Assembly (NCBI GenBank): GCA_039621445.1
Contig: CP154954.1
Location: 20,570,642 to 20,634,641, forward strand
DNA: 64,000 nt
Source of the DNA: Euglena gracilis
Lineage: Eukaryota
Direction: 5' to 3'
The position numbers and the translations under genes were made by a program. This document shows, piece by piece, positions 22,301 to 60,144 of the stretch. The notes below the pieces were generated by a model, which saw nothing but the letters and a program-made list of their open reading frames with translations, was not told the DNA's origin and searched no databases. Every line of letters begins with the position of its first letter. Positions within the stretch are counted from its first letter, which is position 1.

Positions 22301-25300
22301 GTGCACAAAGCGCCGCAGTTTCTCAAGACAGACAGAAGGGGTTTTGGGTTTTTTTTATTGGTCTGAATGTGTTGTTTTATTACTTCCCCATGGGGAAGGG
22401 TGATACCTGGGGCAGGCGCTTGCTGGGCTTATCCCCCTGGGTCGTTAAGAAAATCCTCGGCCAGCTCTGTTATTTCCCAATGCCAAAACCTTGTCATGGA
22501 TGCTTGCAGCCGCTCACTTCATCACGCGCGCGCATGTGTGTGTGTGTTGTGTGTGTGTGTGCGTGTGTGTCTGTGTGTGTGTGTTGTGTGTGTGTGTGTG
22601 TGTGTGTGTCTGTGTGTTGTGTGTGTGTTGTGTGTGTGTTGTGTGTGTGAGTGAGAGAGAGAGAGAGAGAGTGTGTGTGTGTGTGTGAGTGAGTGAGTAA
22701 GTGTGTGTGTGTGTGTGTGTGTGTGCAGCATGCTTGCGTGGCGAAGCGTGGGCCTTGCCCCACGTACCTGGTGGACATGGGATCACACGAGCAACCGTGG
22801 CTGCTCAGAAACTGCTTCACATTGTGTTCGGGTGACCAGGGCTCATTCCTTACCAAACTTTGTTGCCCCATGGCGAGTGGTCACCAGGGTTCGAAGTATG
22901 TATGTATGGATGTATGTATGTATGTATGTATGTATGTATGTATGTATGTATGTATGTATGTATGTATGTATGTATGTATGTATGTATGTATGTATGTATG
23001 TATGTATGTATGTATGTATGTATGTATGTATGTATGTATGTATGTATGTATGTATGTATGTATGTATGTATGTATGTATGTATGTATGTATGTATGTGTG
23101 TGTGTATCATACATATAGTATAGATATATATATATATATATACAGTATATAAACATGTATACATATATATATACACACACACACATATATATATATATTA
23201 TATATATATATGTTGCAGTTGAATTCTATTTGGCCCCAGGCCCAGTTGAAGTTCCAGAGAGTCCAAAATTTTTTTGTGTTATTGATGGAGCAGGGTTAGG
23301 GTTAAGAGTTCGGCTTTTCTTTTCTTTTGGCCTAACTTGTACATCCAACACGCGTCCATAAGTCCATAAGGCCGAACTCCTAACCCTGGCCTTTTTCCAT
23401 CCATAACCCAATATTTTTTTTTGCGGACCTCCCTGGAGCTTCTGCTTGCCCCCCCGGGGGGGGGGCAAACAGAAGCTTGCTGCCAGATATTTATGCATGT
23501 CTACACATATATTGCATCTGGAACGTTGATCTTTCGTTGCAAAGATGTTTGTCAGGCCGTGCCCCGGGGAGTGCCTGGGTCAAGGCCTCTCCCCTCTTCA
23601 CATGGGGAGGGCACTGGCGCTCGGGCTGAGTTGATTCTCTGGGACAGGCAGATGCCCTCCGTTATTGGGGCGATCCACTGAATTTTCGACCCCATAAGTG
23701 ACCCCTGAAGGGGTGCCCGCCCAGTCCCCCCTGCCTCCCAGGGTTCAGCGAATGGGTGGCTGCTGAACTCCCCGTCCTTCAAAACACCTTAGAGGGGATG
23801 GTCAGCATTGGATGATCCCTGTCGACCAATCGGACATGCCCGAAAGGGCATCCGCTTCAGGAGTTTGTCACGGCCACCAACTCTTTCAACTGCGATGCCT
23901 GCCACCGTGGGTTCCCGACTGGCACGCGTATGTTTGGCTGCCGCCAGTGCAATTACGACGAGTGTGAGGTCTGCATTGTCGGCAGCAGCCAGGGCAAATC
24001 CCTGGCTTTCCGAGCATGTAATGATTTTGTGTCCGAAGTTGGAGGTGGGAGTCAGGGAATTTCTTAAGCCAGACCCCGCCCCACCCCCCATCTTTGGGCC
24101 ATGGCGTGATGACGCTGTTCCCGATTTAGGAGATATGAAGGGGGAAATGGTTCTGAATGTCTTTCCAAGTCTAGCTTTGTTGTCTAATATTCTATCTCTG
24201 TGCCTTCGACCAAGGAAGGCAACCCTGAAGGGCTTGCTTGCTGCTGGCAGAGGCGCAATAAACTGGCTGGCACGGCGGGGGGGGGGGCAAATCACGGGGG
24301 GCAAATCACGTCAGTCGAAAATCAATTGTGGGTGTCGACCCAGCCACCCACAGGCACTACCCCAGGCGAGGTCGGTCGCGCCTTGAACTTCAACTTCAGT
24401 GCCGGCCAGTCTCAGGCTGTTGGGGGCATTGCTCAACCAGGGGAGGCGTGGCATACGGCAGGGCAGCCTTGTGGGCCCAGCAAGGTGTGCTTGAAGGGGC
24501 ACCCACTGATCGGGTTCAACACTGGCCAGCCTGCGGCTTGCGTGACCCAACGGGGTCCACGCACCCTCATTCTGTGACGTGCGGAGTGGGGGTTGCATTT
24601 GATGGTTTTGGCAGCCCTGTCAATTGTCCGCAGCCAATTGGATGTTATAATCTTTTCAATAGGTCATTTCAAGTGCGATTAACGGGGACCCTGGCGTTGC
24701 ACCGCCGCGCTGGGCGGCTGCGGGCCGTGGTCTGGTGTGTATCCTTGGCTCTTGCCCGAGGGGGCTGACTGATCGCACGAGATTCACGTTCGACCATCTC
24801 CAGCATTCCCCGAGGGGCCGTCCCGGAAGTGGCAAGGTGCTTAGACATTCTGTTCCACAGGTGAACCACAGAAAGAACACGGGAATCTTTCCACACAATC
24901 TGGTGCTTCCCGAAAGCTGTGTTATGTGGGACCAGGGGTTTTTTTTTAGTCGTGGATTCCCAGGGGGTGAGCCGACCAGGCCGAGCCCCCCCCCCCCCGG
25001 CCCCCCAGGGGGTGGGATGTACTTTTGATAAAGGGGTTATTTTTAGCATTTTCGCGATTTTTGGCCATTTTCAGGGGAAAATGGGTGGGTCCCCCGCCCC
25101 CCCCCCCCCCCAGGAGGGAGTGGGTGGGTTGGGAGGACCACCCCGGTCAAGCCGTCGCCCTGCCGCCGAAACTTCGACGTGGTCGTGTAGTGTCTGCGGG
25201 CAGAAGGTCCCGAAGGGGACGCGCCTCTTCGGCTGCCGGCCATGCGACTATGACGAGTGCGAGGCGTGCGTCCGCAAGGGCCTCGCGGCGCACCAGCCGG

Positions 25301-28300
25301 CCGCCGAGACCGCCTGGACCAGGGCCGTGCGGGGAACGGCGCGCCAGACGAACGGCGCGCCAGTCCACGGTTTGCAGTCCTGCAGGTATGAGGCGGGTAT
25401 GGTAAATTTTTTGAAAAAGGTGCTATTTTTTAAACATTTTCCGCGATTTTTGGCCATTTTCGGGGAAAGGTGGGTGGGTCCCCCTGTGTGCACTGTGGCT
25501 GTTTTTTTGTGGTGCCTTTTATCCCTTCTTCTGGCCTGGCGCTGTTGTTCGCCTCTGGCTCTTTTTGTCTGTGTGCGTGGAGGTGGCCGGAGCCTGGCGG
25601 GACTTACCTTGTTTACAACGCCGGCCACCAAGCGCCCGCCAGGCACATACTCCACTTTAGTTAGGGGGGGTCTCCTTCACCGTGACAACGCACTGGTTAC
25701 TCCTGTCCACGACCCCAGCAGGTGTGGTTCCCAACTCCCCCCAGGGGGTGGGTGGGTGGGGGGAACCCCCCTCCCCCCGGTCATAAGAAAACCCCTGCAC
25801 CAGAGTCGCACCCCGCCCACACAAGCGGTCACCGTTGCACTCCCGGAGATCACAAACGACCGAGCCCGCCCACGAACCTCGCCGGGCCGTGTCCGTGCCC
25901 GGCGAACTGCCGTGGCCCGCGCTGCCCTGCCCCCGGCGTTCCTGGACCGCCTGAAGAGCGTCAACTGCCCCCAGGGGAAGGCAGCGCGGCGTTCCCCATC
26001 CCTGTGCATGGCCGTTTTGCTGATTTGTCGGTTGAAGTCGCCCCCAACTGGCGACTGACCTTTTTTTTTCGGAGCGACTGGTTTCGGCTACGGCCCCGAA
26101 ACCTCCAGGCAGAAGTGATCCACCGAGTGCTGAGAGTTTGTTTATTTTGACCCGTTTTAGGTTTAGCTGCCACTCCCCAAGGGCAGGGGCCAAAGTGGCT
26201 GAATGGTTTCAGTGCCTGCACCACCTTCCTAACACATAACTCCACACTATCGCCATGTGCCCCACACACCTCCAGCCGGCCCCTGCCCGCGGGCAAGGGG
26301 GGCGAGAGGCGTGGTGTGTCACCCAGCGCGACTCCACCACCGCGGTTAAGCAGACGTTTGAGGCCGCCCAACGGGCATCTTTCCGGGCCGAAGGGCTCCC
26401 GGCACCCCGGTCCCGTCCCCGGGAGGGGGTGCCTGCTTGGAGGGGAGGGTGTGGGATTTCGTAGTAGATCTAGGAGCAGGTGTGGCACATTTGGCCAGAA
26501 GTACCTGTGTTCTTCAAAGGGACAGCTGGAAAGCCCTAAATGGCCATTTCAGACAATTCGACTCGACTGGGCCTGTTGGAGGTAGTCCCTGCCTGTCCAG
26601 GTACTCCACGAGTCCCCCCCCCCCCAGGGTTTGGTCAATACTCCACGAGTCCCCCCCCCCAGGGTTTGGTCAATTCAGCCTCGCCCCAGTAGCTTTCCCT
26701 TCACCCGCTTTCCCTCCCCCATCCCTCAACGGGTCCAGACCACCCCCCACCTGCCAAAGGGGGGGGTGTAGGTCGACAACCCAATCCGTTGGCCAACTGT
26801 CCAAGTCTATAGGTCGAGACGGGGTTGGGGGGGGGCAGTTGGTAGTCGGCTGATCAGTGGGCCAACTACCCCTCTAATGTCCCAATGGGTCAAATTCGCC
26901 AACTTTTAAGCCCCAAGGCACTCTGCCGCCTCCCCGACCCCTTCCCACAGGCCGCCCGGACTCCCTCGCGGGCGGTGCAGGTCGTGGCGATGAACCACGA
27001 CCGGCCCCTGGCGGTGGGCGTGTTCCCCGCGGCCACCGACCTGGATGAGTGCGGGGACCATGGGCCCCCCGCCCCCCCCCCCCCATGGATTTTGGGTTCA
27101 TTTTTCAAAAAAATTTCAAAAAATTTTTTCCCGGCCAAAATCCCCGTTTTCCCAAATTTGGTGAAAATGCTGTGGTGGGTGGGAGGGGGGGTGACCACCC
27201 CCTTCCCATTCTGCCCCCGCCCCCACATGGGCCCAGTGTGCTCGAACCGCCATAGTGGACCCGGATACTGCGAGCCCGAACTTCTGGCTTTTTCGGAAAG
27301 CAATTTGGAAAGGGGGCAGGTGGTTCTTGGCAGACCCAGCCCGGGACAAATTTCAAGGCATGGCGGATCGGCCTGCCGGCAGCCACTCCAGGCACCCAAG
27401 ACCCTCCACCCCCCCCCCCGGGGGGGCGGTTGAATTCAGCCCAGTCCAGCTCCCGCCTCGGGGGGGGGGGGGGGGGGTTCCCCGTGAAACGATGCTCTGA
27501 CCATTCTTGGAAGCAGCTGGAACAGGTGCCAATGAGGGGAAGAAGAGGAAGGGGTTCGAATGTCTGGTGTGTCTGCTATCCAAGTGGAACCCAGGGGGAG
27601 ATATTGATATCGCAATTTTCCCGCAATTTCCTCGTACCATGCATTCGATTTGCATTTCAAAAAGGAATGTGCAATGATTTCTGGCAATTCCTTGAATGGT
27701 CCACCAGGGAACCCAATTGTTTTCTGCTTGCTATTTTGTCACAAATTTTCCAAAATTGGCAAATTTTCCGAGTTTTGGCAAAATATGTGGGTTCTCATCA
27801 ATCGAATTCCATATTTTTGGAATCAATATGTTCCCTAAATGGCTTCTTGGAAGATGAAAAAATAAAGGGATTAATATTTTCTTAGTTCTCAATAAAATAT
27901 GTACCGCATTATTCTGGACTATATTGCTATTACCTGCAACCATTATGTATTATATTAAGGTATATGTATTATATTAAGGTATATTATATATGTATTATAT
28001 TAAGGTCATTACTATAATATACTTATTATTCATTACTATTATTGTTATAAACTGCATCATGTTATTTCCCCTCATTTTCTGGAAGGCCTCTGATATCAAC
28101 CTTCCCCCTGTCTAACCAAAGAATGGGGTTGCTGGGATCAGAACTCTGCTTGTTTTGGTTGGCGGTTGACATTAGGGATAAAATTTGCAGGTTGCTGATT
28201 TTTTTTGACTTTTTGACCTTCCTGCCCCTCTATATTACCCCATGCACATCACCCAGGGTGGGGGTGGGGGTGGTGGCACTTTTTGGGTGAAACCAACACT

Positions 28301-31300
28301 TTTTTCCAAGCCTGCTGGCTCGCCTGATTGAGCGACAGATGTTGGGGTCTTCAACCTTTCCTGCCAGCGACTGGGTTGCTCGTTCGGACGCCCATGCTGT
28401 CGATTATTACCTGGGCGAAAGAGGGTTGTCCGGCAGCATTGGGTTGGTGTTCTTCAACAAGAAATGCCAACTATATGCTTCTGCACGGGGTCCCACCATT
28501 CCCAAGTCCTGTTTTCCTTTTGGTAAACGTTGCACGTGTATTCATAAAAAATAAACTTTCAAAAAAAATGGTCTCAATGTTCTTTTGTTAGTTTTTTTTT
28601 GCGATTTTTGATTAGACTCATAATATCTACCATCTGCAGGTTCGTTTGGGACGCTGTGGGAGGCGGGAGATCCGGACCGAGCCACCAACTCCGGGTTGGG
28701 GGGCGACGGGACCCATTTGGGGCTGCGGTTATTCGTTTGGTGGATGGGCGACATTCTCAAAACATTTCAGTGCCTTGGAATAGGTGGGGACATTTGCTTT
28801 ATCTGGGCCACCTTCTTTTCTGTACATATTTTCTTTCTCTCAACGTCCACTACAGGGTTTCCACAGCACCCCTTTCCCTTTTCCTCTAAGAAATCCTGAT
28901 GATAAGGAATTCTGTTTTTTTTTGTATCCTAGTTTTGCAGCTAGTTTATCGCTCCTGAGTGAGACTTCACACACAACAAGACGGGGTTATGGTGTACGGT
29001 CAGATATTTTTTTAAAAGTGTTTTCTAAAGAATAATTTGTTTGATAATGTAGGGGGGGTCCACCCCCCCCCTCCACGGGGGTTGGAGGTCAGGCCAAGCG
29101 GGTTCCCCCCCCCGGAAGTTTTTTTTCGCACCGAAAATTTTGGAACCCCCTTCGAAAGGAACAACTATAATGAAACATGGGAGCTGGAAGGGAAATGCAG
29201 GGCCGCGTGAGTTTTTGTCAAAAATTTGCGCACCCCACTCCTCATGTAGCCATTGGATAGTACCTGAAAAAATTGTTCAACTTTTTCTGCAGGGCAGAAA
29301 CTTTTTTTTTCCACTCTTTTAACACTTTGCCTCGATTTGTTTGGCCAACTCCCCCTCTTTGAAAAAAGGAGTGGTTTTATATGTGTCTTCTTTGTCAATT
29401 GGGAAAACCATTGGAAAAAGACCGTAGCTTGTTAAAAGTGAGAAAAAAATTGTTACGAGTTCCCATGAAACGTTGTGTTGAATTTTCCCATCCTCACCCC
29501 CCCCCTTTGTCGAACAACCGGGCTTGTCCAAAGACCAAATGTGTTCTTTTCGGATATGCTTTTGGTTTCGTGAGGATGGGAAGAAAGTGTGTGAATTAAT
29601 TTCTTATCTTTTTTTTTAATTTTTTTCACTGCTGCATTGCTTTTGTATTTGTTGGGATGGTCACCATAAAATGGATGAGAATGCCAAAATGCGCTAGAAA
29701 GGCCAATGTCCCCCCCAGGCATTTGCTTAAGGGATTGCAGTACCCCCCCGGGGGGGGGGCTGGACTGCAGCTAGTCCAAATTTGGCTAGTGGGTTTTCTA
29801 GCAGACCCCCCCCCGGGGGGGTCTGCTAGCAGGGCTAGCTAGTGGAAAAAAAATTTTTGGGACCCCCAAAAATGGCCAAAAATGCCCGTTTTTGGCCATT
29901 TTTGGGAATTTTTGGAACAAAATCAGCCAAAAACCTGTTAAAAATTTTTTTCCAGTCCGGGGGACCCCCGGACCCCCCCCCCGGGGGGAGGGGGGTCTAG
30001 CTAGTCCACTTTTTCCAGTGTCTAGCCGATTGGCTAGCCAGTACCCCCCCCCCCGGGGTCCTTAAGCAAATGCCTGGTCCCCCCTCAAAAATGGTTATAA
30101 ATACCCCAAAAATGGCTAAAATTGATTTCAGCGTGCAAAAAGGTGCGAAAGGTCTGAAAATTGCGAGAAGTTGGCCCAAAAAAAGTGGCCAGAAATGAAC
30201 AAAAGTGCCAAAAAATATACGAAAAGTGGCCCAAAAAATGGCCAAATGTGCCCCAAAATGTGCCAATTTTAGGTCATAATTTCCCTGCCGTGCCAAAGGA
30301 GTTTTTCCTACTACACCGAAGGAATTTTCCGTTGTGCGGTTGCTTGGCGGGTGGGAGGTGTCCACCTCCCCCTGAACAAACCGTGATCAGAGGTCATTGA
30401 AAATCAATAGCCCCCAAGAGAAGCGGCTGCTCGAAGCACGGGGTTCAATGAAACGCACCCCCACGTTTGGCGGGATTCCCGAGGATTTCGAAAGAGATGG
30501 GCCCAGGGGCATATATCAAAAGTCGCCCCAAAAATGCCAAAATTAGCCAACACAGTCGTAGATCCCCTCCTGCGGCATTTTTTTTTGCCAACTTGGGGTC
30601 CCTCCCTGTACAATGACCGCCCCCCTCCTCTGTGATCCAAACGTCAATGGTTGTTGGACAATGGCGGGGTGGGGTAACTTTTTCAAATCCCAAACCAAAT
30701 TGTCTCATCATTTTCTCCTGTCATTTTAACTTTGTTGTTGCAGTTCCATCAGCGAATGCTGCCCCTTCCCAAAGGGCTGCTGCAGCAGTTTCAGCCAACA
30801 GTTTTCAGTAGCCTGGGACTTCAGTGGCCGGAACTTTTTTTTGGCCCACCAGTATGCGACTGTGCAAACATGGACAACCGTACGTTACCGTTTGCAGGTG
30901 GCATCCCCACCTGCCCCTTCCAGGAGTTTGCCGCCTGGGGAACTTGTCACCACAGGGCCAGCACCGGCCGACCTGTACATCGGAACGCCTGCCCCACACA
31001 GCCTCCCGGGGGGTCCATCCAAATTTGAACGTTGTGTACAGGCTGAATTTCAATGGTGCGGACCCTGCCTTAGGGGGGGGGGCTGCCTGCCTGAGGAGGC
31101 ACTCCAAGGCACCCAGATCCGACCCTGGGTAGGGCACACGGCCAAAAGTGCCTGGGCACAAGGCAAAGGCTCTCCTGGCGCCGAAGGCGCCGTAACCCAG
31201 AACAGGCCATTTTGAGGCATTTTTTTTTGGCCTACGACCAGGCAGCACCGACCCCCCCCCCCAGGGGGTGTAGTGCCTGCCTGCCCGGGCACCCCAGGGG

Positions 31301-34300
31301 CCCTCCGAGACCCCCCCCCCCGGGTTGGTCTACCTCAGCCTGATCGTGTAGGCTGGGGGTCGCTCTTTCCGGGGCCCCGCCGGCAACGACCCCATCGGGG
31401 CCCCCAGGGGCACCGTGGCAGCGGGGGACGTCGTGGAGGTGACGGTGGACTGCGGCACGGTGGCGTTCGCCGTCAACGGCCAGCGGCACGGCCCTACGGC
31501 GCGGGCGGCCGGGGGCCAGTGGCGCTTTGCGGCGTCGCTGTGCGGGCTGGGCCAGAAGGTGAAGGCCACCGCCCTCCCCATCCGCCTGGGGCAGGCCTGC
31601 CGTTCTTCTCCCGGGATCTCTAAAATCACGATTTGGACCAGGGGATTTCTTAAGCTGGAGGGAACCCCATCCCCGGGAGGAGGGTCCAGCCAGCCAGCAG
31701 CCCAAATCGGCGCTGGGAGCCCCCCCCCCCCTTCCCTGGGGTTGAGTGAAATAAAGTTGGATCCAGCCTGGCCGGAGGCCGGGCTAGCCGGCCGAAGGCC
31801 GGACCAGCTAGCCGCAGGCTGGCCAGCGAACTGGGCTGCCCAGCTCACCTATCCCTGCATTTTTTCTCTCATCACAGCCTCGCCTTAAATGCCTGGAGCA
31901 AATGTCTGGCACACGGAGGCAAAATTGTTTTTCCGAAATTGTTTCTCATCGACACAGCCCAGCACAGCCCCCTCCAGCCCCGGACCCCCCCCCCCCATTC
32001 CCCCGGGGGTCCAGCCAGCAGCTCGTTTCCTGCCAGCAGCCTTTTTTCTAGCCGGAGGCTGGACCCCCCCCCCCCGGGCCGGGGGTCCTTAAGAAATCCC
32101 CTGGTTTGAATTTTGTTGTGTCACCCAGATGTCCCTTTTTTGTTTTTGTTTTGCTACTTTTTACCTCGCATTTTCGACCTGTGCGAATTCTGTGGACACA
32201 ATCAGCAGGACTTCCATCAGCACAAGATTTCTTTTCGCATTTTTTTGTGGATATTTTATCATGTTCCAACATCCTGTGCTACTGAAATATCTGTGTTGAG
32301 TCAAATTCAAGTTAAAATCTCCGGGAAATTCAACTCCTGCTTTTTGATTTTGAAATCTCCGGGAAGGTTCAAAATCAAAAGCAGGAGTTTTTATTTTTTG
32401 AAAGGAAAAAAATTAACCTATGGGAAAATGCCACTTGAGTCTAGAGGCAAAAAGGTTTGTTGACAAGCTACCAACACAACGAGCAACAGATTGATTGAAG
32501 TCAGAGGGACACAAAAAATAACAACATGACGCGGATCCCTTTTGAACGTCTCTTGGTAGCAAGCTTTAAGGAATATAAGTGCTATGGGTATTTTCATACC
32601 CCCAAGGTAGCCTGTATTCGAGACATGGCACGAACCCGGGACCCCTACCCCTACCCCCCCCTACCAGGTTTTGAATAGTGCTGAGCTCTTAATAAGCGCG
32701 CCCCCACCCCTTCATTGACCCCCCATATATACCAGCCACTCCGTGGAGCTCTTTGGACTGAAATGCAAGGGTTTTGTGCCCGAAACGGGAGGCCAAGGGG
32801 TCAAAAAACGCTCATTTTTGGCTCAAAAACAGGGTTTCCGGGTGCGGGAGAGCAAAAAACATCGTTTTGGGCAAAAATTTTTTTCGATTTTTTTTGGACT
32901 TTTTTGACCCGGGTTTGGCCCGAAGTCAATGGGTCGGCAGCCCAAAACAGGGCGCCGGCGGGTCGAAAAACGCTCGTTTTCGGCTCAAAAACAGTTTTTC
33001 CGGGTCCGGGAGGCCAAAAAACATCGTTTCGGGCAATTTTTTTTTCGATTTTTTTCGACTTTTTTTGGCCGAAAACGGCTAAGTCGAACAGAGTGAAAAG
33101 TGTAGAAAATGGCCTAAATTGGCCGAAAAACGGCCGTATCTCGGGCTAGGCGGTGAGCTGCGGGGAAACCAAAATCCCAGTAGATAGAGCGTTCCAAGGG
33201 CTTCAATTTAGGTCTCCAGACATTTCCTTTGATTTTGCATCATTTTTGAGAAATTGTGAAAACATCGATTTTTTGACCCCCCACCCCCCCGAAAACGGCT
33301 AAGTCGAACAGTGGGAAAAGTGTACAAAATGGCCATCTGCGCCGAAAACGGCCGTATCTCGGGCTAGGCGGGGAGTTGCGGGGAAATCAAAATACCAGTA
33401 GATGGGACCTTCCAAGGGCTTCAAATTAGGTCTCCAGACATTTCCTTTGATTTTGCTTCATTTTGGAGATATTTTGAAAGTTGACATTTTTTGGCCGAAA
33501 TGGCAGAGTCTAAAGGGGGGGAGGGGGCTTATCCAGGGGGGGGGGGGGCGGGCCAATCCAACCCAGTTTGGACCCCTTCGCGCGTGAATAACTCGCGCCT
33601 GGCGGGGAGTTGGGGATCAACCCAGGTGATTCGGAAACTAGGAATCGCAGTCGACTGAAATTTTTTTTTTCGGGAACGGGGCCGGGATCATGGTGATAAT
33701 CCGCCAGTTCCCGAGGTGGCCCCGAGGGGGGGGACGGGGGGTTCAGGGGGGTTTTCCCCCAGGGGTAAGCTTCGCTCTTACCCATAAAGGGATAAGGGCT
33801 CAGCGACCCCCCCAACCCCCCCCCCCACCCTCACCCGGGTTCGTGCCATATGTGCTGTATTCAGGAAGTTTGGTTTCAACTCCAATGAAAAATTGTTTGT
33901 CAGGCAGCATTCAGAGGTAAGTTACTTTCCCACCTCACTGACCACTGAAGTCTCATCATCTTTTATATCTTTTTTTTCCCATTTCTTCGTGTGTCTTTTC
34001 GTTCTACACGTTCCGAAATCTGGAAATTGGAGGGACACCTTCAAAAAACCCCAAAAGAAGGTTTTTTTTTTAACAATCTCGACCCCTTTTTTTATTTTTT
34101 CGGCAAACCCGGCTGTGTCTGCCCACCCTAACTTTTTTTCCAGTAAACCCCTGGGGCAGCTGGTAGGAAAAAGGTGCTGGCTGCCCCTCCGGCGTTTGAT
34201 ATCCTCTGGTGTTGCTGAGTCCCTACATTGATATGAATGGGATCAGGCTTCTGCTTAAGGGATTGCAGTACCCCCCTGGGGGGGGCTGGACTGCAGCTAG

Positions 34301-37300
34301 TCCAAATTTGGCTAGTGGGATTTCTAGCAGACCCCCCCGGGGGGGTCTGCTAGCAGGGCTAGCTAGTGGAAATTTTTTTTCCAGTGCCCGGCGCGAAGCG
34401 CCGGAATTTTATTTGGAATTTTTGGAACAAATTCAGCCAAAAACCTATTTTGAAAACCTCATTTCCACCTCGGCGCGCGCCGGAGGAAAAATTTTTTCCA
34501 GTTGGGGGGACCCCCGGACCCCCCCCCCCCAGGAGGAGGGGGGTCCAGCTAGTCCATTTTTTCCAGTGGCTAGCCGACTGGCTAGCCAGTACCCCCCCCC
34601 CCCGCGGTCCTTAAGCAAAGGCCTGAATGGGATTGATCCTGACATGCTGAGGATACCTGGCCGCAAAGTTGTTGGCATCCATCAAACGTTTTTTTTTTGT
34701 TGAACAGACATCATCAGACGTCGTCGCCGAATATGAAAAAGAATGGCTGCGGCCCACTTTGTGAATTTCCAGACATTTCCTTGCGAAATTGCATTTGAAA
34801 GACTTCATTAACAAGTGCAGAAAATTTCGATCAGGACCTTGAAAGCAGCGAGGGTCATGGGGAAGACGTGAAGGGCGAAGAGACGTTTTTTTAGCTTGAG
34901 GTCCAAATCCCTCACATCAGCGACTTTAATTGATGAGGCTTGTTGAGGCAGGGGGTTCCTTAAAGGGGGGGGGCAGCCGGTTGCTGGACTTGACCTGGCT
35001 GGCACCCAGAAAACGGCAAAATGGCCCAAATCCAGTTTGTAGCTCGGTTGGGGAGATGGCTGGAGACAAACGGCTGGTTTGGAGTCAATCTTCGGCACGT
35101 TGTTTTTTTTTTGCAGATTCCTTCTCCCCCCCAAAGCACAGACATTTTCAGACATTGCGGGGGGTGGTGAGGTCGATTCTCTCCGGCAGCGGTGCTGTGG
35201 ACGGCGCCCCGCTGGCTGTGGGGACCCGAGGCGGTCCTATCCTTTGGCCGGGAGACTGATTTCCTGCCCTGATTTCCCGAGTTCCTGCGCTGGGATCCGT
35301 CTTCATTTGTGGCAGTTCGGTAAAGGAACGCTGCTGTGCATGCTGTGGTGGAGGCTTTAGCTTCAAGCCAAGCCCTCTGATGCTAATGGGATGGCTGGGT
35401 GTGAGGGTTTGCTTTGCACACAACCATCCCTCCGAACCGCTTGCCAAACGCAGAAACCTTCTAACGTCTCAACTTCATTTTATTCAATTTGGGATTATTT
35501 TCTCTTTGCTATTCTTCGGAAGTCTGTTGAAGGAAGTTTTCCTTCGTTTTCGACAACATTCGGTTGCCCAGTCCGGATTCTTGACGCCCGTCTTTTGGTC
35601 CGATTTTTCAGCGTCAATCATGGAGCAACATTGCCACTCCCAGTTGTTTCCATCCCCAATTGTGGGTGAAATTTTGCAAAAGTGCAAAAAAAAAAAACGC
35701 ACGAAGCGCCAGAAAAGAAAAGTTTAACCTTTTGGAGGGGTACCGGGTACCCCCAAGGGTCATTCCGGACCCCCCTTGGCAGGTGGGGGGTGTCCCCCAA
35801 CCCCCCTCCGGTCAAAGGGGGGGGATTGGGGGGACACTCCCACCTAAACCCCATACACCCTCCTTATATCGAACCCTGAGGTAGAAGGCACAGATGTGAC
35901 GTACACGAGACCGTCGCTGGTGTAGACTCCGGTCGTTGTCAGAAGCGAAGCGGAGGTCCGCGCTGCGCTGGCCGGTTCCAAACTCCAGGTCGAGCCGCGG
36001 CTGCAGTTCTGCCAGAAGCGCGGGGAGGTCTACAAGTATGACTCGCAGGATAATGAATGAGACCCTGTTCACATCCCCACGGGTGTGCCTCGTTGCTTAA
36101 CACACAACTTGTTTCCTGCGTTGTTTTGAGCATCCTGCTGTTTGTAGGCTTTATGATCCTTCATGCCCTTCTGCAGCGCTGTTGTGGCACAAAAGTTATG
36201 GGGCATAAAAAACAGCTTTTTTTGTCCACAAATGAACCACAAAATCACAAACTTGTGAATCGAAGAAAAAAAAACATCTGCAGAATCACAAAAAGTTTGT
36301 TGCACACAATTCCAGATACAAACCCGACGGACCCAGAGACAAATGGTGTGCTTTTCCCAAAACAGCTGCAATAAACGGTCTGGCCTGACCCGTTCCCGGC
36401 TTGCTCACTTGCCTGGTGGTAATTGTTGACCCTCCCTTTCCTCAACAGGGCCCCCCTTCCACCTATCAACTTGCCATTGGCAGCACTGGAGTGTGGTTCA
36501 CCCGCGCCTGCTTTGATGTAGTGGCCAACGTCCAGGCCATCTGTCCCACTGATGAGTCTCGAGCTCCGATGCTTGATATTGAGCACTTGTGATCTTTTTT
36601 TTTGTTCGGGTCGTTTCCATCCAGCCAGCACAGGCCACAAATACCTCACCCCTTTGTCATATGTTTGGCGATCATCCCCTCTTCTCTTTTTGAACCATCT
36701 TTTTGGGCGGTTGCTTTGCGCATTGGCTTCAAAGTGACCTATTCCTGCTGATCACCCGGCACAAATTCTCTCACACGATACCTGCTCCGCAAAAACACAC
36801 AAGAGCACAAGGGGTGTTGTGGTGGACCCTCACACTGGCGTTTGTCACACAAGTGTCACACAAGTGTCACACAAGTGTCACACAAGTGTCACACAAGTGT
36901 CACACAAGTGTCACACAAGTGTCACACCGCCACTGTGACACGCAGCGGCAGTCCTGCCTTGTCCTGGGACAGCCGTCGGGCAGTCCCCCCCCCCCCCTGC
37001 CGTTACCCGGTGGCACTGCCGGGGATGACTGCGGGACCCTGGTGGGCCTGCAGGTGCGGCTGCGCACGGCAGAGAAGTTGGAGGTCCTACCCAGGCCCGC
37101 CGGTGCCATTTGTGCGGGGCATCCAATGCATGCGCGCAAATCAGAGTTATTAACTGTTCGGCCACACTTCAGTGTAAATGATCACTGTGGAGAGATTGGG
37201 GCGGGGGGGGGGGGCTCAATGGGATTCTCCTGCATTGTTTCAGAAGGTGAATATTGAGGGGACAAGCATGGCACAGATAAAGAGATCGGTGCAGTGCGCA

Positions 37301-39925
37301 GGAAAAAGAAAGGGCAACGTTCCTTTCATTTTGCAAATATTAAGGGAACTTCAGCTTCGGATGGTTTCACCCACAATTTCTTCAACAAAGCCTGTTTCCC
37401 CGGGGGTCAAAACGCCCTGGGATGAAGTGCATGGCCAAGCAAATGCCCCAGAAAGAATCCTCTCCGGCAACCTCACCTCCCAGTAAAGCGCCTTTCAGGT
37501 CCTGCCCATACCATTAATTAAGGTGTGTCCGACCCCACCCCACCACCCCCATGGGGGGGGGGGACTGGCTAGTTTTTCCCCCGAGTGATTGACTGTTTTT
37601 TTTTCCCGGATCTGACTGGTTTTGTTTTCCCCTGGCTCTGTAGGGGGTTGGGTCGGCCAGGAATGGCTGAAAGTGGCCACCCAGTGCCGAAGGCGCCGGA
37701 GGCTTTTTTATATATAAAGGGTTTCGTCCAATATCCATTGGTTTTGGGCCATTTTTAGTTTAGTGGTATTGCCCTCACTGGCCAATGACCGACCCCGCCC
37801 TCGGTGTAGCAAGTGGGTGACTGGTTTTCAAGAAATTTGACCTTTTTGCTTTTTGCTTAGTTTTTTGAAAGCGGACAGTGACCCCCGGTGAGCAACGGTG
37901 TGGTGCCGCCCAGGACATGGTCCCAATTATGGCTGACCTGTTACGATGCAAAGCTGTCAGGTTCTAATGGTCATCCCCCCTGCCGGCCACCGAAACAACA
38001 AATTCTTGGCAGTGTTTTTCTGGTACCCCCCCCCCTAAATACCAACGCCCACCATAAACCAACCACCCCCCGGTCGGGGGTTGTAGGTGACCTGGGGAAT
38101 ATAGGTGTTTTTGGCACCTGGTTGTACGACTACCACCCGCTGGGTGGGTGCAGGTCAGGGGGTGCGTATGACCCCCCCCTTGGTCAGGGGTTGTTGGAAC
38201 CTGGTCGGTAGGCAAGGGGGGGGGGCAGTTGTAGAATCCGTGTGGCCAATCCTTGCATTTTGTGTGACATTGGTCTTGGAGTGCTCAGGGAATACCCGCC
38301 TACCCGCCTTTCAAGGGCTCAAAAAGTCATCGTCAAGTTGCAGTTGGCACGAATTTGTTGCGCCGCAAAAATTATTTCCCCCTCCTTTGCTGGCCGTGAA
38401 ATGATTGCCCTCCGGGGGGGTGCGAGTGGGGTAGGGTAGGTCTGCTTTCCGTCCTGGAGGTCCACCGGCCCAGACGTGATGCACTCTGGCCTGCCGGAGA
38501 GGTCGGCCACCCTGACCCCGGGGCCCATTGTGCCCCATGCCAACAAGACGGGCACCGTCCGGCAATATGACACGTCAGACAACACCTACCTGGTGGAGTT
38601 CACCGACGGCATTGAGAAGTGGGTGACGCGCGCCTGCTTCGACGTGGCGATTGGGCAAGGTGGGCTGAAGTGTTCATTCCCCGTTGACCTTGAGATGTTT
38701 GAAAGGGCGAGGTGTGGCGGTGGCCCATGCAACGCAGCCATGGTCTCTCCCTTTTATGGCTTCTTCTCCCCTGTTTTCCTGTTTTCCCTAAATATCCTGT
38801 TTTTTTTATATACGGTTGGCTTTCCCCTACTTCGATCCATGCCACTTTGCGACTGAGGGCGGCTTCACCCGCTGGCACATTGGCAATCAGGAAGCCCTCG
38901 GCGAAGGGAGCCCCGGGGCCCCAGGATTCAGGACAATTTCAGCATCCTTGGGCGACGCCATGCCCATGCAGCACCGGCACACGAATTCCGCCGCATTTCC
39001 GGTTTAGGGTGAGGGCCTGCTGCGCCGACCGGGTCGTCCGCGGCCCCACGTGGCAGTGGGGGAATCAGGACGGCGGTGCCGGGACCGTGGGGACTGTGGT
39101 GACCCTGGACTTCAAGGGGCCCGAGTTCGTCAAGGTGGCTTGGCCGACGGGTTCCAGACAGCAACGCCTTCGTCAGTCAAGAGGCGAATCCCTGTCAGGG
39201 AAAAGTATCCGACAAGTGTACAGCATTTGCCTGATTGGTCTCGAGAGGATGGCCGTACTGAACTACAAAATGTAAAAATGCCTGTTTTTGACAGGGAAGG
39301 ACAAAGATAAGAATTGGTGCCAAATTGGCCCCCACTTCAATCAATTTTTGCCCAACCATCGAAAGACCATCTTTTTACCATCTTTTTCACTAAAGCTGAA
39401 AGCTTTGCTGGACCCAATTCGACGACCACTGCCAATTACCGGCAAACTGACATCCAACTGAGCCCAAGTACATTCGACAAGCCCATCCCACCAAAGCCGG
39501 GGCAGATTGCAGCTTTTCTTGTAGCTTTGCGATTCTGTTGGTGTTGGTGGTGGTGGTGATGATGGAAATGCATGCCGGTGCCAGATACTCTCCTCAGCGA
39601 CAGACAGTGCACCATTGATTTTTTCATCAAGTGGGCAGCAAAGGTTTGTGCCAAATATGCTCAAGCCTCAAAAAATGCCACTCTAATTGTACTGGAATTT
39701 CCAAACCTCATTACCTGTTTGTGACAAGTCTCCATGTGTTTTTTTTTATGTGCCGAAGCGTAATGAGCTGCATGTTGAAATGGACGCTGACCCAACCACA
39801 AACCCTAGTGGCAAGTCTTCTGCCTTGACTCACAGGGCTTTGCAATAACCAATTTTTTGCTCGCTTTATCGTCGTCGTCGTCGTCGTCATCATCATCATC
39901 ATCTTCATCATCATCATCATCATCC

Positions 39926-39968
<43 letters not shown>

Positions 39969-42490
39969 CATCATCATCATAACCACCACCATCGTCAGCA
40001 CCTCTTCTTCCTCTTCACAGAAATAACTCATCCGTTTTGATGTTCCTTGGACATCATCCAGATGCAGCTGCCCCCCCCCCCGGCCTGCTAGAGGGTTTTG
40101 AGTCTCTTGGGGATGGAATGATTTGACTCCTCTTTGAAAAGCTGACTCCAGCTTGTCCAAACAAAGTGAGCGGAAACTGATTGTTGTGCACTGTCGACCT
40201 CCTACCAGCGGGAAGTTCTGCCAGCAGATCTGGCTAATGAGAATATATACATATACCATACATCAGGGGGAACAAACGCGTTTACAAACTTGTTTTCGGG
40301 GCGTTTTTTTTTTCTTTCGATTTTGGCAAAATTTGCTTTTTTTGCGGTTTTTTTTTGCTTTTTTCCCCGGCGGTTTTTGTTGGAAAATAACTATGAAGAA
40401 TCCCTCATTTTGGCCCTGATTTTCCCCGAAACCAAATTTTGGTCAAGAAGTTGCATTTTTTTTTGTCATATTTCATTTTCTTGCATTTTTTTTGTTGTGT
40501 GTTTTTCTTGGTCTCGTTTTTTTTTTGTGGGTCGATGTTGCATTTCCCCTCCCCTGCATGTGTACACACATGTGTGTGTATAAATATTTGCATGTGTGTG
40601 TGTGGGTGTGTGTGCATGTCTTCTTGCCAATCATCTGGTGTAAAAAAAATGTCTGTTTGACAGAAATTTTCTTTCGAAATTTATATTTTTTCTTAAACGT
40701 ATATTTTCAGGCTTTTTGAAATTCAAAGCCTTTTTTAAAAGCAATATGGAAGTTGCAGCAGAAATGTGTGCAGTGGTTCAAAAGGAATCCACATACAACC
40801 TGCATTCTTTGCACTTTTTGGCATTACATACTTTGAGGTTCTTTTTTTGACGTTTTTTTTCAGGTTGAAAAATTCTCCTGTACTCGACACATTTATTTAC
40901 TTTTTTTGTACGCGTTTTAAAATTTGCAGGGTTTGAGTGATATGCGTGATATATTTTGAGGGTATGTGTGATGGTTTGGGGTGGCCCTTTCAGCTGCAGT
41001 TTGTGGATACCCCAACATCCCCCCCCCTGTGAGACAAAAAGAGCAGGGAGGAGAGGAGAGGAGGACCTTGGAGTCCTGCCTCGCCAGGTTTCAGCCCTCC
41101 AGTCGGCTGGGCCCTGCTCTTGCCTGAGCTACAAAAGCTCCTAACGGAGCTGAACCTCTTCACCCCAGCCAACGTTGATATCCTGGTCGAAGCTGGATGG
41201 GGGTGCAGTTTGGACACACGCACACACACCTCACAAACGAGCTGATAATGTTTCCGTTCATTTTCCCTCACTGCCCCGATTGCCCTTTCTGACGTGCCTC
41301 CATCCCCAACCGGTGTTATGCCGTGTTGGGATATGTGCCATATGCCACCTGTCACATGCCCCCCTGGATGTCGTGTAACCATTCATCTGTCGATTCTATT
41401 CCCCCCCCCCCAGAAACTGTTCTTTGCCTCCTGTGCCCAGTTACCATATAGGGAGGGACCTGTCTCTTTCCTATTCTATTATTGACTCGTTGACTTCTCT
41501 GGAGACTCTCCTTGAGGGGGGTGGGTAAGTTGGTAAGGTTGGATTTTCAAATGGGGACCTGTGGGAGTAGTGGCCACAAACGAGGGGGATTTCGCCCCCT
41601 GCGGAGAGGGTCGGTGGTGACCCCCAGCGGCGAAGGCCCCCCATCGCTGTCAAACTGGACCTCCGGCCGATACGACTCCTTGCCGGCGTTGGTCTTCGCA
41701 GAGAAGGACGAGCTGGTGCAGCGCGGCATGAAAGTCCCCCACGCAAAGCTGAGCAGCTCCTGCCCGTTGGGTGCCGAATTAAGCTGATTGCTGACAGGTG
41801 GGAAGGATGGTGCATATTCGGGTGGATGGTACACGTTTGTCAGGGTATTTGTGGCATTGGATAGCATTTTGAAACCATGTGCAGGGGCATACAATTTTAG
41901 CGACCTCCTGAGGGGGTGATGTTCGGGAAATGGGTTTTGAAAAAAAAACCAACATTTTCAACCCACGTCATGCCTGGACCAATTTTGGTTAATTTTTCTC
42001 GGTTTGATTTTGGAATCGACAATTCCTAAAATCTATTCAAAATATGTATCCAAACATAATCAAAAACCCGAAAATTTGCATTTTTTGAATACTTTTGCGT
42101 TCTTTTTGCTGTTCTGATGGTGTTTATTTTTTTGTGTGAAAAAGTCTGAAGGATAGGCCAAAACATGCACCGCATGACACACACAGTCACATGATTTTGT
42201 GCGTAAACAAGTTTTCCTGGACGAGGAGAAAGTATTTCAGTCCTCTCCGGCAGAAAAGTGAGCATCCCGGGAAGCTCGTGACGCAACCTCCATTGTGTTT
42301 TGCCATCGTGCGAAACGTCTCTGTCCCCCCACTGCCGGGGGGAGTGCCACCGCTGCCTGCCCGCCCCCCCCCCTCCGCTCTGTGGCAGTCGCTGGCCGCA
42401 CTGCTGAGCAGTCTGCCGGGGGAGTCCGCGCTGAAGTTCAAACCGGGGGACCGCCGCCGGGACTCCCCGACGTTCGGCCCGGGGGTCCCT
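16329..42490 (+). CDS. Multidomain SPRY / Mind-bomb-type SH3-like repeat / ZZ-like zinc finger / MIB-HERC2 / SAM protein, about 27 exons, 3' end not resolved
   Basis: Exons read by hand: 16329-16445, ~17050-17217, 18071-18151, 18901-18990, 19333-19364, 20813-~20867, ~21528-21704, 22012-22053, 22762-~22833, ~23825-23986, ~24476-24523, 25168-25316, 25935-25968, 26291-~26385, ~26972-27055, 28402-28482, 31385-31588, ~35190-35229, ~35932-36054, ~36461-36530, ~37010-37088, 38499-38652, ~39024-39150, ~41122-41195, 41669-41750, 42400-~42490. Resolved joins keep frame, and the internal repeats align with each other. Confidence 0.75.
16405..20867 (+). CDS. Gene B, SPRY-like domain copy 1 (6 exons)
   Basis: [13 protein letters not shown]|...[131 protein letters not shown]-type motifs WEV, VGV, G..V.V, FAVSL. 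Confidence 0.75.
16793..16945. repeat. 17-bp tandem repeat, 9 copies (GTCACATGGTAGAATTT)
   Basis: Read directly; no spacers. Confidence 0.9.
17218..18070 (+). other. Non-conventional intron
   Basis: ttcCAGGGCAATG...CATTGCTCTGccccc; join MCG|NNFLG. Confidence 0.8.
18152..18900 (+). other. Non-conventional intron
   Basis: ggcGAGGCTGAGAC...GTCTCGGCCTCtctgg; join FMTA|GKSFG. Confidence 0.75.
18991..19332 (+). other. Non-conventional intron retaining an 8-bp TSD
   Basis: ccgtg|gatGAGGGCGTCGCTCAATG...CACTGAGCGCATGCCCTGccgtg|gac; join VTV|DGK. Confidence 0.85.
19365..20812 (+). other. Non-conventional intron, phase 2
   Basis: ggcCAGGGCTGCG...CGAAGCCCTGcttga; AA|G restores K-MAGSYRF. Confidence 0.8.
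21705..22011 (+). other. Non-conventional intron
   Basis: agcCAGGGGTT...AACCCCTGgtcct; join AVA|GKTG. Confidence 0.8.
22054..22761 (+). other. Non-conventional intron with AAG/CTT termini
   Basis: gcaAAGGCCCA...TGGGCCTTgcccc; join DSDN|TYLV matches the uninterrupted DTSDNTYLV at 38569-38595. Confidence 0.85.
22535..22725. repeat. (GT)n/(GA)n microsatellite
   Basis: Read directly. Confidence 0.95.
22897..23212. repeat. (GTAT)n followed by a TA-rich microsatellite
   Basis: Read directly. Confidence 0.95.
23825..25316 (+). CDS. Gene B, two Cys/His-rich zinc-finger repeats (ZZ/C1-like)
   Basis: [46 protein letters not shown] and [46 protein letters not shown] align with identical Cys/His spacing. 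Confidence 0.8.
24524..25167 (+). other. Non-conventional intron
   Basis: ggcCAG..CGGCTTG...CAAGCCG..CTGccgcc; join FNT|ETSTWSC. Confidence 0.75.
25315..31588 (+). CDS. Gene B, SPRY-like domain copy 2
   Basis: [35 protein letters not shown]...[90 protein letters not shown]...WRFAASLC is collinear with copy 1. Confidence 0.75.
25317..25934 (+). other. Non-conventional intron, phase 2
   Basis: gacCAGGGC...GCCCTGccccc; TG|G restores [10 protein letters not shown], matching [10 protein letters not shown] of copy 1. Confidence 0.85.
27056..28401 (+). other. Non-conventional intron with CAT/ATG termini
   Basis: gacCATGGGC...GCCCATGctgtc; join ECG|DYYLG. Confidence 0.8.
28483..31384 (+). other. 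Non-conventional intron with CGG/CCG termini
   Basis: gcaCGGGGTCCC...GGGGCCCCGccggc; join LYAS|NDPIG. Confidence 0.75.
29716..30076. mobile_element. hAT-like MITE, family 1
   Basis: Perfect 17-bp TIR CAGGCATTTGCTTAAGG; perfect 8-bp TSD GTCCCCCC on both sides. Confidence 0.9.
31639..32103. mobile_element. hAT-like MITE
   Basis: Perfect 16-bp TIR CAGGGGATTTCTTAAG; decayed TSD ATTTGGAC/GTTTGAAT. The same left end recurs at about 7509, 22121 and 24053. Confidence 0.8.
33071..33460. repeat. Tandem direct repeat with ~220-bp period within a larger repetitive block (~32780-33480)
   Basis: GAAAACGGCTAAGTCGAACAG...GGTCTCCAGACATTTCCTTTGATTTTGC occurs from 33071 and again from 33291. Confidence 0.8.
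34244..34625. mobile_element. hAT-like MITE, family 1, second copy
   Basis: Body closely similar to 29716-30076; TIR CAGGC..TGCTTAAGG; perfect 8-bp TSD AATGGGAT. Confidence 0.9.
36844..36927. repeat. 11-bp tandem repeat (GTCACACAAGT)
   Basis: Read directly. Confidence 0.9.
37089..38498 (+). other. Non-conventional intron, phase 2
   Basis: accCAGGCC...GGCCTGccgga; CT|G gives EVL-RSAT. Confidence 0.7.
39024..39150 (+). CDS. Gene B exon, MIB/HERC2 domain
   Basis: [25 protein letters not shown]...VKVAW matches the MIB-HERC2 signature RVVRGxDWxWxxQDGG. Confidence 0.88.
39868..39995. repeat. (CGT)n/(CAT)n trinucleotide repeat
   Basis: Read directly. Confidence 0.9.
41122..41750 (+). CDS. Gene B exons, SAM-like domain
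   Basis: [52 protein letters not shown] has the helical SAM pattern (L..L.L ... G.D.L ... L...G.K..H..L). Confidence 0.6.
41751..42399 (+). other. Non-conventional intron, phase 2
   Basis: gagCAGCTCCTGCC...GGCAGTCGCTGgccgc; join KL|LLSSLP. Confidence 0.7.
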
Positions 42491-44621: not shown

Positions 44622-44934
44622 CAGGGCAGTCTTTAAGGGACAGGAAAGTTTTTTATTTCCTTAAGGGCCGCCCCCCCCCCCCTTTCGGCCAAAGGGCCGG
44701 CCAAGGGCCAGACTGGGATTTGAACAGGGGCAGAAATTTAACAGTCGGAAATAACAGTTTTTGATGATTTGGGTGGATGGACGATGGTCCAAGGGTGCCA
44801 GGAACCAATTTTTTTCCCGATGTCGACCTGTTCTCGCCGAAAAATGCCAAAATTTCTTGCCATTTTCTTGTGCATTTTTTATTGAGTGTGCTGGGACAGC
44901 GAAGTTGTTTTTCATTTGCTTAAGAACCGCCCTG
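44622..44934. mobile_element. hAT-like MITE
   Basis: CAGGGCAGTCTTTAAG...CTTAAGAACCGCCCTG; perfect 8-bp TSD GGCCACAG. Confidence 0.85.
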
Positions 44935-45588: not shown

Positions 45589-45976
45589 CAGGGTTCGATA
45601 TAAGGAGATAGTGGTAGTACGGGGTTTAGGTGGGGGGTGTCCCCCCCACCTCCTCCTGGACTGGAGCGGGTCTGGACCCCCCCCCCCATCTGCCAAGGGG
45701 GGTCTGCACCGACACGGGGACCCCTCCCCAAAAGGTCAAATTTTCCTTCCGGTGCGTGTTTGCGTCGATTTTTTTTTGCATTTTTGACAATTTTTTTTGC
45801 CCCAAAAGTGCCCAAAATGGCACTTTTTGGCCGTTTTGGGTGGGTCGAATTTCTCGGCCCGGCGCTTTGCGCCGGGATGAAAATCCGTTACCTGGGCCGC
45901 TCCATTGTTCCCCCCCCACCCTCCCTACTAGGGGGGGGGTTATGACCCACCCCACCGGCTGTTATATCGAACCCTG
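45589..45976. mobile_element. hAT-like MITE
   Basis: Perfect 15-bp TIR CAGGGTTCGATATAA; TSD ATTCTCCG/ATTCCCCG (7/8). Related fragments end at about 2862 and 35878. Confidence 0.85.
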
Positions 45977-50989: not shown

Positions 50990-51152
50990 GCCATATCATG
51001 TCGTATCATATCATGTCATATCATATCATATCATATCATATCATATCGTATCATATCATATCATATCATATCATATCATATCATATCATATCATATCATA
51101 TCATATCATATCATATCATATCATATCATATCATATCATATCATATCATATG
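50990..51152. repeat. (ATATC)n pentanucleotide repeat
   Basis: Read directly. Confidence 0.9.
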
Positions 51153-51559
51153 ATATCATTATTGTGTCGTGTTTCATTTTCGGTCAGCAGCACCAAAAAG
51201 TTTTAGATCCAAAATTGACCCCCCCCCAAATGTGCCCCCCCCCCGCCCCAAGGGTGGTTGAGTGACTGGGTGCCGACCAACGATTTGTTTGCCCCCCCCC
51301 GGGGGGTGGGTGGGTGGCTTTTGAGAGCGGATGGGTGGGTTGGGGGCCAATGGGTGGGCGAGTTGGGATCCAGGGGTGTGGTACACCCTCCAAACCCCCC
51401 CCCCAAAGTTTGTCTGATTTTGGGTGAATTTTGGGTGGGTGGGTGGGTGGGTGGGTGTATTCGGGGTAGTGTGGGTGGGTTTTCAAAAAAGTGATGGGTT
51501 GCAGATAAAAGTGACGGGTGGCCTGCAGATAAGTTCTTCCTTCCAAGGGAGACCTGTGG

Positions 51560-52367: not shown

Positions 52368-52630
52368 GGGCATCATGGATCATGATGGGCATCATGGGTC
52401 ATGATGGGCATCATGGGTCATGATGGGCATCATGGGTCATGATGCGCATCATGGGTCATGATGCGCATCATGGGTCATGATGACCATCATGGGTCATGAT
52501 GCGCATCACGGGTCATGATGGCCATCATGGGTCATGATGGGCAGGATGGGTCATGATGGGCATCATGGGCCATGATGGGCATCATGGGCCATGATGCGCA
52601 TCATGATGATGGGCATCATGCGTCATGATC
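52368..52630. repeat. 19-bp tandem repeat (GGGCATCATGGGTCATGAT)
   Basis: Read directly; degenerate copies. Confidence 0.9.
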
Positions 52631-60121: not shown

Positions 60122-60144
60122 TTCAGTCACCGGCAGGCACCTAC

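Follow-up and report, generated by a model that had tools for sequence, protein, structure and literature searches.

Two short elements, each bounded by inverted repeats, lie between the exon candidates of one large gene of Euglena gracilis and end in the triplets that mark euglenid nonconventional introns. The locus raises the question of whether these elements are transposons, introns or both, and whether they could be cut out of RNA on their own. The stretch analysed here, hereafter the window, comprises 64,000 nucleotides of the forward strand (GenBank assembly GCA_039621445.1, contig CP154954.1, positions 20,570,642 to 20,634,641), and all positions below are counted from its first base. 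A preliminary description, made from the letters of the window, had proposed a recently active MITE (miniature inverted-repeat transposable element) family with CAG...CTG termini, nested inside existing introns and possibly spliced as twintrons, that is, separately from the intron around them. We refer to the two copies on which it was built as copy A and copy B. We conclude, with a probability of about 0.75, that A and B are independent MITE insertions with 8-bp target-site duplications (TSDs), that they lie between exon candidates and that their ends match the signal of nonconventional introns (Table 1).

Comparison of sequences within the window identified two members of the family, A and B. 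The terminal inverted repeats (TIRs), the TSDs and the coordinates are as the preliminary description gave them, and the TIR ends of both copies read CAGG...CCTG. The two TSDs differ from each other, as do the flanks beyond them, which bears out the claim of independent insertions. The copies had also been called closely similar. This is true of their arms, where 122 of 126 ungapped columns on the left (97%) and 116 of 126 on the right (92%) are identical, but not of the whole elements, which agree in 313 of 412 columns (76%), with indels separating the centres. For recent activity the intact TSDs are the one argument: no empty-site paralogue of either insertion site was seen within the window, and the one DNA run compared (X12, below) has the right junction of copy B in place. 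As RNA, both copies are predicted to fold into a long hairpin whose first pairs join the terminal CAG and CTG, at -222.3 kcal/mol for copy A (z -11.2 against shuffles) and -200.6 kcal/mol for copy B (z -7.2). Terminal CAG and CTG with strong pairing are likewise present in a third element, 31639-32103, in agreement with the preliminary description. Both A and B are small and without coding capacity: no open reading frame (ORF) over their region has a Pfam match, and no ORF bridges the excision point of copy A.

Table 1. Positions and defining traits of the elements, introns and exon candidates discussed in the text (N3 and N5, the three bases before CAG and the five after CTG; GC3, GC content at third codon positions).
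Feature	Position	Length	Strand	Traits
MITE copy A	29716-30076	361 bp	.	perfect 17-nt TIR beginning CAGGCATTTGCTTAAGG; CAG...CTG termini
TSD of copy A	left 29708-29715, right 30077-30084		.	GTCCCCCC, identical 8-mers
MITE copy B	34244-34625	382 bp	.	TIR 15/17 (copy A's repeat with two mismatches); CAG...CTG termini
TSD of copy B	left 34236-34243, right 34626-34633		.	AATGGGAT, identical 8-mers
Older MITE, related TIR family	31639-32103	465 bp	.	perfect 16-nt TIR CAGGGGATTTCTTAAG; flanks 5/8
CAG...CTG element	44622-44934	313 bp	.	perfect 8-bp TSD GGCCACAG; weaker terminal repeat
CAG...CTG element	45589-45976	388 bp	.	perfect 15-nt TIR; TSD 7/8
CAG...CTG element	51560-51817	258 bp	.	perfect 8-bp TSD ACCTGTGG
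CAG...CTG element	60134-60984	851 bp	.	perfect 8-bp TSD GTCACCGG
Element of another family, termini not CAG...CTG	32620-33854	1.2 kb	.	perfect 8-bp TSD CTGTATTC; 16-nt perfect inner TIR
Nonconventional intron (by paralogue comparison)	24524-25167	644 nt	+	N3 GGC; CAG 24527-24529; CTG 25160-25162; N5 CCGCC, then G
Embedded copy of the 51560-51817 MITE family	24933-25162		.	BLAST matches of family positions 1-98 and 121-240 onto 24933-25146
Candidate in-frame nonconventional intron	25317-25802	486 nt		N3 GAC; CAG...CTG; N5 CACCA, then G
Upstream exon candidate, SPRY-like module 2 (N-terminal part)	26978-27064		+	paralogous to 17140-17226; high GC3
Exon candidate, C-terminal part of SPRY-like module 2	31353-31558		+	weak SPRY match; GC3; end at 31558 or 31635
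Next downstream exon candidate	35925-36054		+	GC3 signal; frame-compatible junctions from the SPRY-like exon candidate

The duplication length of 8 bp recurs well beyond these two copies. We scanned the window for CAG...CTG pairs at spacings of 60-4000 bp, asked for complementarity at 12 or more of the 14 terminal bases, and obtained 46 pairs. Their flanking 8-mers agree at all eight positions in four cases (A, B, 51560-51817 and 60134-60984), at seven in one (45589-45976), at five in one (31639-32103) and at four or fewer in the others. A scan for exact flanking repeats of varying length next to CAG termini gave four matches at length 8, one at length 5 and none at 6, 7, 9 or 10, and shuffled controls (n = 20) gave 0 or 1 matches of any kind. 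The elements at 44622-44934, 45589-45976, 51560-51817 and 60134-60984 differ in terminal type, and the flanking repeats keep a length of 8 in no fewer than five TIR types. The TIR pattern CAGGNNNTNNCTTAAG, allowing up to one mismatch, matches 13 times in the window, against 0.88 matches expected and a maximum of 4 in any of 100 shuffles. Partial relatives of the left end of 31639-32103 lie at 7509, 22121, 24053 and 61372, and a partial copy of the 45589-45976 element ends at 35878. The 32620-33854 element, which shares an interval with copy B and 31639-32103, has a different kind of terminus and the same duplication length; its CTGTATTC has just two occurrences in the window, both equally far from the TIR pair, and the element holds internal duplications of 162 and 218 bp. 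At 9314-9855, nested CAG...CTG inverted repeats with complementary outer flanks make up a long hairpin of ~540 bp rather than a TSD-bearing element.

Sequence reads place the family elsewhere in the genome as well. We compared 23700-39800 with three RNA runs (X21, X22 and X24, ~5-6% of each sampled) and with the contigs of a DNA run (X12). Summed word depth in X12 reaches 481,448 over the bin of copy A, against roughly 50-170 in unique bins, a sum that is not a copy number. Position 29989 within copy A is covered by 81 distinct X12 contigs, and joints and loose ends of contigs reveal further variants of the family elsewhere in the genome. These data suggest that the A/B family has many copies. 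One X12 contig matches 34590-35036 with zero differences, taking in 36 nt of copy B, its right junction and 411 nt of flank, so this junction is not an accident of assembly. The highest summed DNA word depth of the stretch belongs to 32620-33854, and at 33303, within that element, RNA reads of both orientations start or end. The exact 27-nt core common to A and B had no match in metagenome contigs, and Rfam and tRNA scans of the window returned no matches.

The ends of these elements can be set beside an experimentally defined splice code. Nomura et al. (2025; PMC12501133) give the code of euglenid nonconventional introns as N3-CDG...CH'G-N5-6 followed by a purine, with pairing just inside the triplets. 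In that work, 50-nt synthetic introns with the features of the code are spliced, also in foreign contexts; lengthening or shortening the 5' spacer by one base abolishes splicing; and in one of two test contexts the transcript was unstable when the intron was followed by C. Short direct repeats border 84.4% of introns, and nonconventional introns exceed 70% of all introns in one sequenced species (PMC12501133). At the termini of A, B and 31639-32103, CAG occupies +4 to +6 and CTG -8 to -6 relative to the predicted cuts. The TIRs supply 15-17 nt of pairing directly inside the triplets, and the minimum-free-energy folds of A and B pair the termini. The junctions that the preliminary description had put forward, 29712|30082 and 34240|34631, correspond exactly to N3 before CAG and N5 after CTG. 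It had also credited each element with a complete signal. Copy B and 31639-32103 agree with the full published code, with G and A, respectively, after N5, but copy A has C there and C again after N6, which makes it a poor substrate by the published purine rule. Copy B and 31639-32103 could thus be excised alone from a pre-mRNA, as we infer, and copy A, followed by a pyrimidine, less likely so. Because the spacers of 3 and 5 nt add up to the 8-bp TSD, a cut at these positions removes the element together with exactly one duplication and restores the pre-insertion sequence; this restoration is arithmetic on the observed anatomy and the published cut sites.

One intron of the same gene suggests how such a terminus may be used. 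The segment 24524-25167 is a nonconventional intron on the evidence of a paralogue comparison: when 24523 is joined to 25168, the translation aligns without gaps over 45 residues, 25 of them identical, with the unsplit single-exon module at 23840-23980. A copy of the 51560-51817 MITE family is embedded in this intron, and the 3' CTG of the intron lies at most 2 nt from the expected right terminus of the copy; the last ~16 nt of the embedded copy fall outside the BLAST matches, and the coincidence of the termini is deduced from position. In this gene, a MITE terminus thus seems to act as a nonconventional splice signal. The embedded copy has a CAG end of its own, the use of which alone would leave an in-frame stop; a 'complete signal' on the inside is therefore not necessarily the one used productively. 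The candidate intron at 25317-25802 has a 3' end similar to the 31639 family's right terminus, but as the frame is open even without splicing, this intron is an uncertain inference. Three putative 5' boundaries, at 24930, 25317 and 31636, are preceded by or begin with one and the same 9-nt string (GACCAGGG plus G or C), perhaps a sign of a longer terminal repeat or of a preferred target. We also considered 24053-25797 as a single long element and rejected it, since it would contain exon candidates of the second zinc-finger-like module.

Whether A and B are intronic depends on the exon candidates around them, which we called on the plus strand from third-position GC and from paralogy within the window. 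Copy A sits between 26978-27064 and 31353-31558, and copy B, together with 31639-32103, between 31353-31558 and 35925-36054. The first of these exon candidates shares 15 of 29 residues with 17140-17226 (E-value 1.6e-5). For the second, 31361-31600 weakly matches the C-terminal half of SPRY (E-value 0.054, profile positions 63-99 of 121), and at 31406 there are eight stranded plus-strand RNA reads in X24. SPRY-like module 1 is split at the corresponding place, into 17140-17226 and about 18890-19010. The C-terminal residues of the third candidate, 35925-36054, resemble the module at 38515-38658, in a reading of the translations and not an alignment; as this candidate has no start codon and follows an in-frame stop, it must join something upstream. 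Besides 17140-17226/26978-27064, the window holds the paralogous pairs 23876-23977/25171-25272 and 22000-22128/38515-38658. A MIB_HERC2 domain lies at about 39027-39161 (E-value 5.3e-12), no minus-strand ORF has a Pfam match, and the stranded run X24 shows plus-strand RNA over the exon candidates. On these grounds, A and B probably lie in introns of a plus-strand modular gene, copy A very likely so. The preliminary description had assigned both copies to introns of one gene; the plus-strand exon candidates on either side and the divided SPRY-like module speak for this. A search of transcript-derived proteins with the SPRY-like exon candidate, in its longer and near lengths, gave no matches.

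The outer introns allow several solutions. Between 31.5 and 35.9 kb, 22 frame-compatible options obey a splice rule, among them a canonical GT-AG intron with a good donor (31559-35925) and a nonconventional intron (31636-35924) whose 5' signal would be the left terminus of 31639-32103; this element begins ~80 nt past the SPRY-like exon candidate on the GT-AG model and 3 nt past it on the nonconventional one. From the exon candidate at 27.0 kb to the acceptor at 31352, a strict search gave only weak GC-AG options; two GT-AG and several nonconventional ones came in once the purine rule was relaxed and a wider donor range allowed. A possible small exon near 28.7 kb could reach the same acceptor by two GC-AG options.

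In the RNA runs, depth over the unique bins of the gene is 0 to 3.25 (X21, X22 and X24), and flank depth at the inner junctions is 0 to 1.7. RNA reads on the A/B family run in both orientations, and at 29989 most of those on copy A carry the variant found in other copies and so stem from other members of the family. The only strong RNA joint among those listed, from 25111 back to 24986 (126 nt back, hundreds of reads), lies between two C-runs and goes with poly-C loose ends; we take it for an artefact of low-complexity reads and not for a circle junction. In our estimate, copy B is about as likely as not to be excised separately, copy A has a chance of some one in four, and a functional stepwise splicing pathway is doubtful.

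Several results weigh against the conclusion drawn above, or against parts of it. At an RNA depth of at most 3.25, neither 29712|30082 nor 34240|34631, nor any outer junction or exon-exon pair, is among the joints listed, and neither transcripts nor junction reads speak for the gene model or for an excision of A, of B or of 31639-32103. No convincing ORF is bridged by any of the seven elements tested, so that not one can be presented as a sole intron. A purine follows N5 in two of the seven complete elements (B and 31639-32103) and in just one (B) of the six with a perfect or 7/8 TSD, so fresh insertions are not enriched for the full code. With an overall identity of only 76%, A and B are not the products of one very recent burst. 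Finally, a scan of 366 ORFs across the 64-kb window gave no relevant match to a transposase domain, which leaves the superfamily as a guess from TSD length. The hAT superfamily and a few others make 8-bp duplications, and we tentatively assign the A/B family to such a superfamily, perhaps hAT.

How A and B behave in RNA admits two readings. They may be passive passengers, intronic transposon debris that is removed only with the host intron and whose resemblance to the code has no consequence here. We give this a little less than an even chance: the elements lie in non-coding DNA and bridge no ORF, most of those with intact TSDs lack the purine after N5, and copy B could lie in a canonical GT-AG outer intron. 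Yet the code suffices in foreign contexts, and recognition of a transcribed copy B is therefore to be expected, unless the outer intron is removed before it. The other reading is that of functional twintrons, in which A, B and 31639-32103 would each be cut separately, before or independently of the outer intron, trimming it stepwise from inside. Copy B and 31639-32103 satisfy the whole published code, under which even 50-nt synthetic introns are spliced; their local stems of 15-17 bp are far stronger than any that join ends ~4 kb apart; and both orientations occur among RNA reads on the family. Nonetheless we hold this reading to be rather unlikely. None of the predicted junctions or back-splices is among the joints listed, where power is very low, and most reads on copy A derive, by the 29989 variant, from other copies. 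The C that follows copy A destabilised the transcript in one published test context. Excising 31636-32108 alone would, in our reading of the sequence, put a stop codon at the junction, and the inner MITE of 24524-25167 likewise leaves a stop when used alone, so inner signals are not necessarily productive. Moreover, if the outer intron is the GT-AG intron 31559-35925, it would be removed before any inner element, conventional introns going first according to a review that cites Guminska et al. (2018) (PMC11282704). The difficulty that nested splicing had been invoked to explain, namely how introns of several kilobases defined by short stems are handled, would then not arise around copy B.

Two further readings touch the premises of both. 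One or both copies might lie not in an intron but in an intergenic spacer or an untranslated region within a gene cluster. The stop produced by excising 31636-32108 comes right after the SPRY-like exon candidate and could be a true C-terminus, the bins around copy A contain almost no RNA, and the search of transcript-derived proteins gave no support to the gene model. This arrangement is nevertheless improbable: the two halves of one SPRY-like module enclose copy A and the paralogue of that module is divided likewise, 35925-36054 lacks a start codon and is preceded by a stop in frame, and sense-strand RNA of the stranded run dominates the bins at 33903-36050. It is more improbable still that the 8-nt flanking repeats arose by double-strand-break repair at intron gain instead of transposition, the interpretation given for the 8-nt repeats at a newly gained intron (PMC4770533). 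At this locus, the same TIR-bounded sequence stands at unrelated sites next to different 8-mers, the length stays at 8 over at least five TIR types, and X12 holds many variant contigs, features that together are hallmarks of duplications made by a transposase. We therefore hardly entertain break repair as the source of the repeats and retain MITE insertion between exon candidates as the best account.

A transposon source for nonconventional introns has precedent in the literature. Their origin is called unclear by Nomura et al. (2025; PMC12501133), who name MITE-like elements as a possible source. A MITE origin was proposed by Milanowski et al. (2014; PMC3935182), and a newly gained nonconventional intron of E. 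agilis with 8-nt direct repeats was attributed to break repair by Milanowski et al. (2016; PMC4770533). A 2024 review depicts TIRs and TSD-like repeats on nonconventional introns (PMC11282704). Our literature search, which left most subscription journals outside its scope, found no description of concrete Euglena MITE families, of an 8-bp duplication rule or of a link to hAT, and none of nuclear nested nonconventional introns. Since a MITE origin has already been published, A and B are concrete members of the proposed kind.

A and B share with euglenid nonconventional introns (Nomura et al., 2025, PMC12501133; Milanowski et al., 2014, 2016) the triplet positions, the inner complementarity and the border repeats, which make boundaries 'slidable', and they fall within the same size range, from tens of nucleotides to kilobases. 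Unlike those introns, which interrupt exons and are excised, A and B are known here from DNA as candidates for excision, and copy A lacks the purine. They are also identifiable members of a repeat family with intact 8-bp TSDs, something that the portions of those papers cited here propose and do not document. Introners, the MITE-like introns of Micromonas, dinoflagellates and others, offer a similar logic, in which a transposon carries part of the signal, the TSD completes it and excision restores the transcript; introners, however, use the spliceosome, GT/AG-type sites and, in the cases described, TSDs of 3-5 nt (PMC11282704), whereas A and B have a CAG/CTG terminal stem and an 8-bp TSD. Twintrons, in Euglena plastids (group II/III) and as spliceosomal 'stwintrons' in fungi (PMC12403724), also consist of an excisable element inside an intron, but they are defined by sequential splicing, and A and B are known here from sequence anatomy.

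With regard to transposons, A and B resemble the MITEs with 8-bp TSDs, of hAT and a few other superfamilies, in having short TIRs, a length of a few hundred base pairs, no coding content and apparently many copies. They differ from these in that the window yielded no transposase partner and holds several unrelated TIR types with the same 8-bp length, one of them (32620-33854) without CAG...CTG.

The surroundings of the two copies form what is apparently one very large modular gene with repeated units, on the plus strand at 16300-39200. Its modules are two SPRY-like (about 17.0-19.0 and 26.9-31.6 kb), two Cys-rich zinc-finger-like (23.8 and 24.5/25.2 kb) and three small Tudor-like ones (22.0, 35.9-36.5 and 38.5 kb), besides the MIB_HERC2 domain at 39.0 kb, and the product may be an E3-ligase-like protein. 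At 38616, 23 reads of X24 match onward and carry a different, related coding sequence before that point; there is expression of a paralogous module or gene that is nearly identical in its downstream part. Micro- and minisatellites occur at 23000-23172, 36843-36927, 39887-39980, 50947-51186 and 52308-52649, with (GTAT)n, an 11-mer repeated 7.7 times at 100% identity, (TCA)31 and arrays of 10 and 19 bp among the types.

The mechanism that we propose would begin when a non-autonomous DNA transposon lands in non-coding DNA of the large plus-strand gene and makes an 8-bp TSD. Its CAG...CTG termini, closed by an inverted repeat of 15-17 bp, would act as the cis signal for Euglena nonconventional introns, and the machinery would cut 3 nt before CAG and 5 nt after CTG, so that the element would be 'born spliceable'. 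Excision at the RNA level would then take out the element and one duplication, and the sequence that preceded the insertion would be regained. In this scheme, the asymmetric spacers of 3 and 5 nt would exist because their sum is one TSD, and a new MITE insertion in a transcribed region would be erased from RNA at once. Transposons stacked in introns would be removed singly, the inside ones first, and an outer intron could borrow the transposon terminus nearest its exon, as 24524-25167 apparently does and 31636-35924 possibly does. In its most general form, the scheme would make euglenid nonconventional splicing a precise, RNA-level excision of transposons with 8-bp TSDs, an idea that we advance tentatively and consider unlikely at present.

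What the window provides is a set of concrete MITE families with intact 8-bp duplications and with ends identical to an experimentally defined splice code. The points most worth pursuing are the 8-bp rule, the match between 3+5 and the TSD, and the MITE terminus that apparently acts as a splice signal. The twintron idea is a proposal only; if true, it would bear on how very long, transposon-filled introns are processed. The arithmetic by which 3 and 5 make 8 would explain the asymmetric spacers of the code. If what the window shows, including a real intron that ends about where a MITE terminus is expected, were true genome-wide, the long-standing hypothesis that nonconventional introns originate from MITEs could be put to a direct test, since the elements are named, the junctions defined and a knock-in assay at hand.

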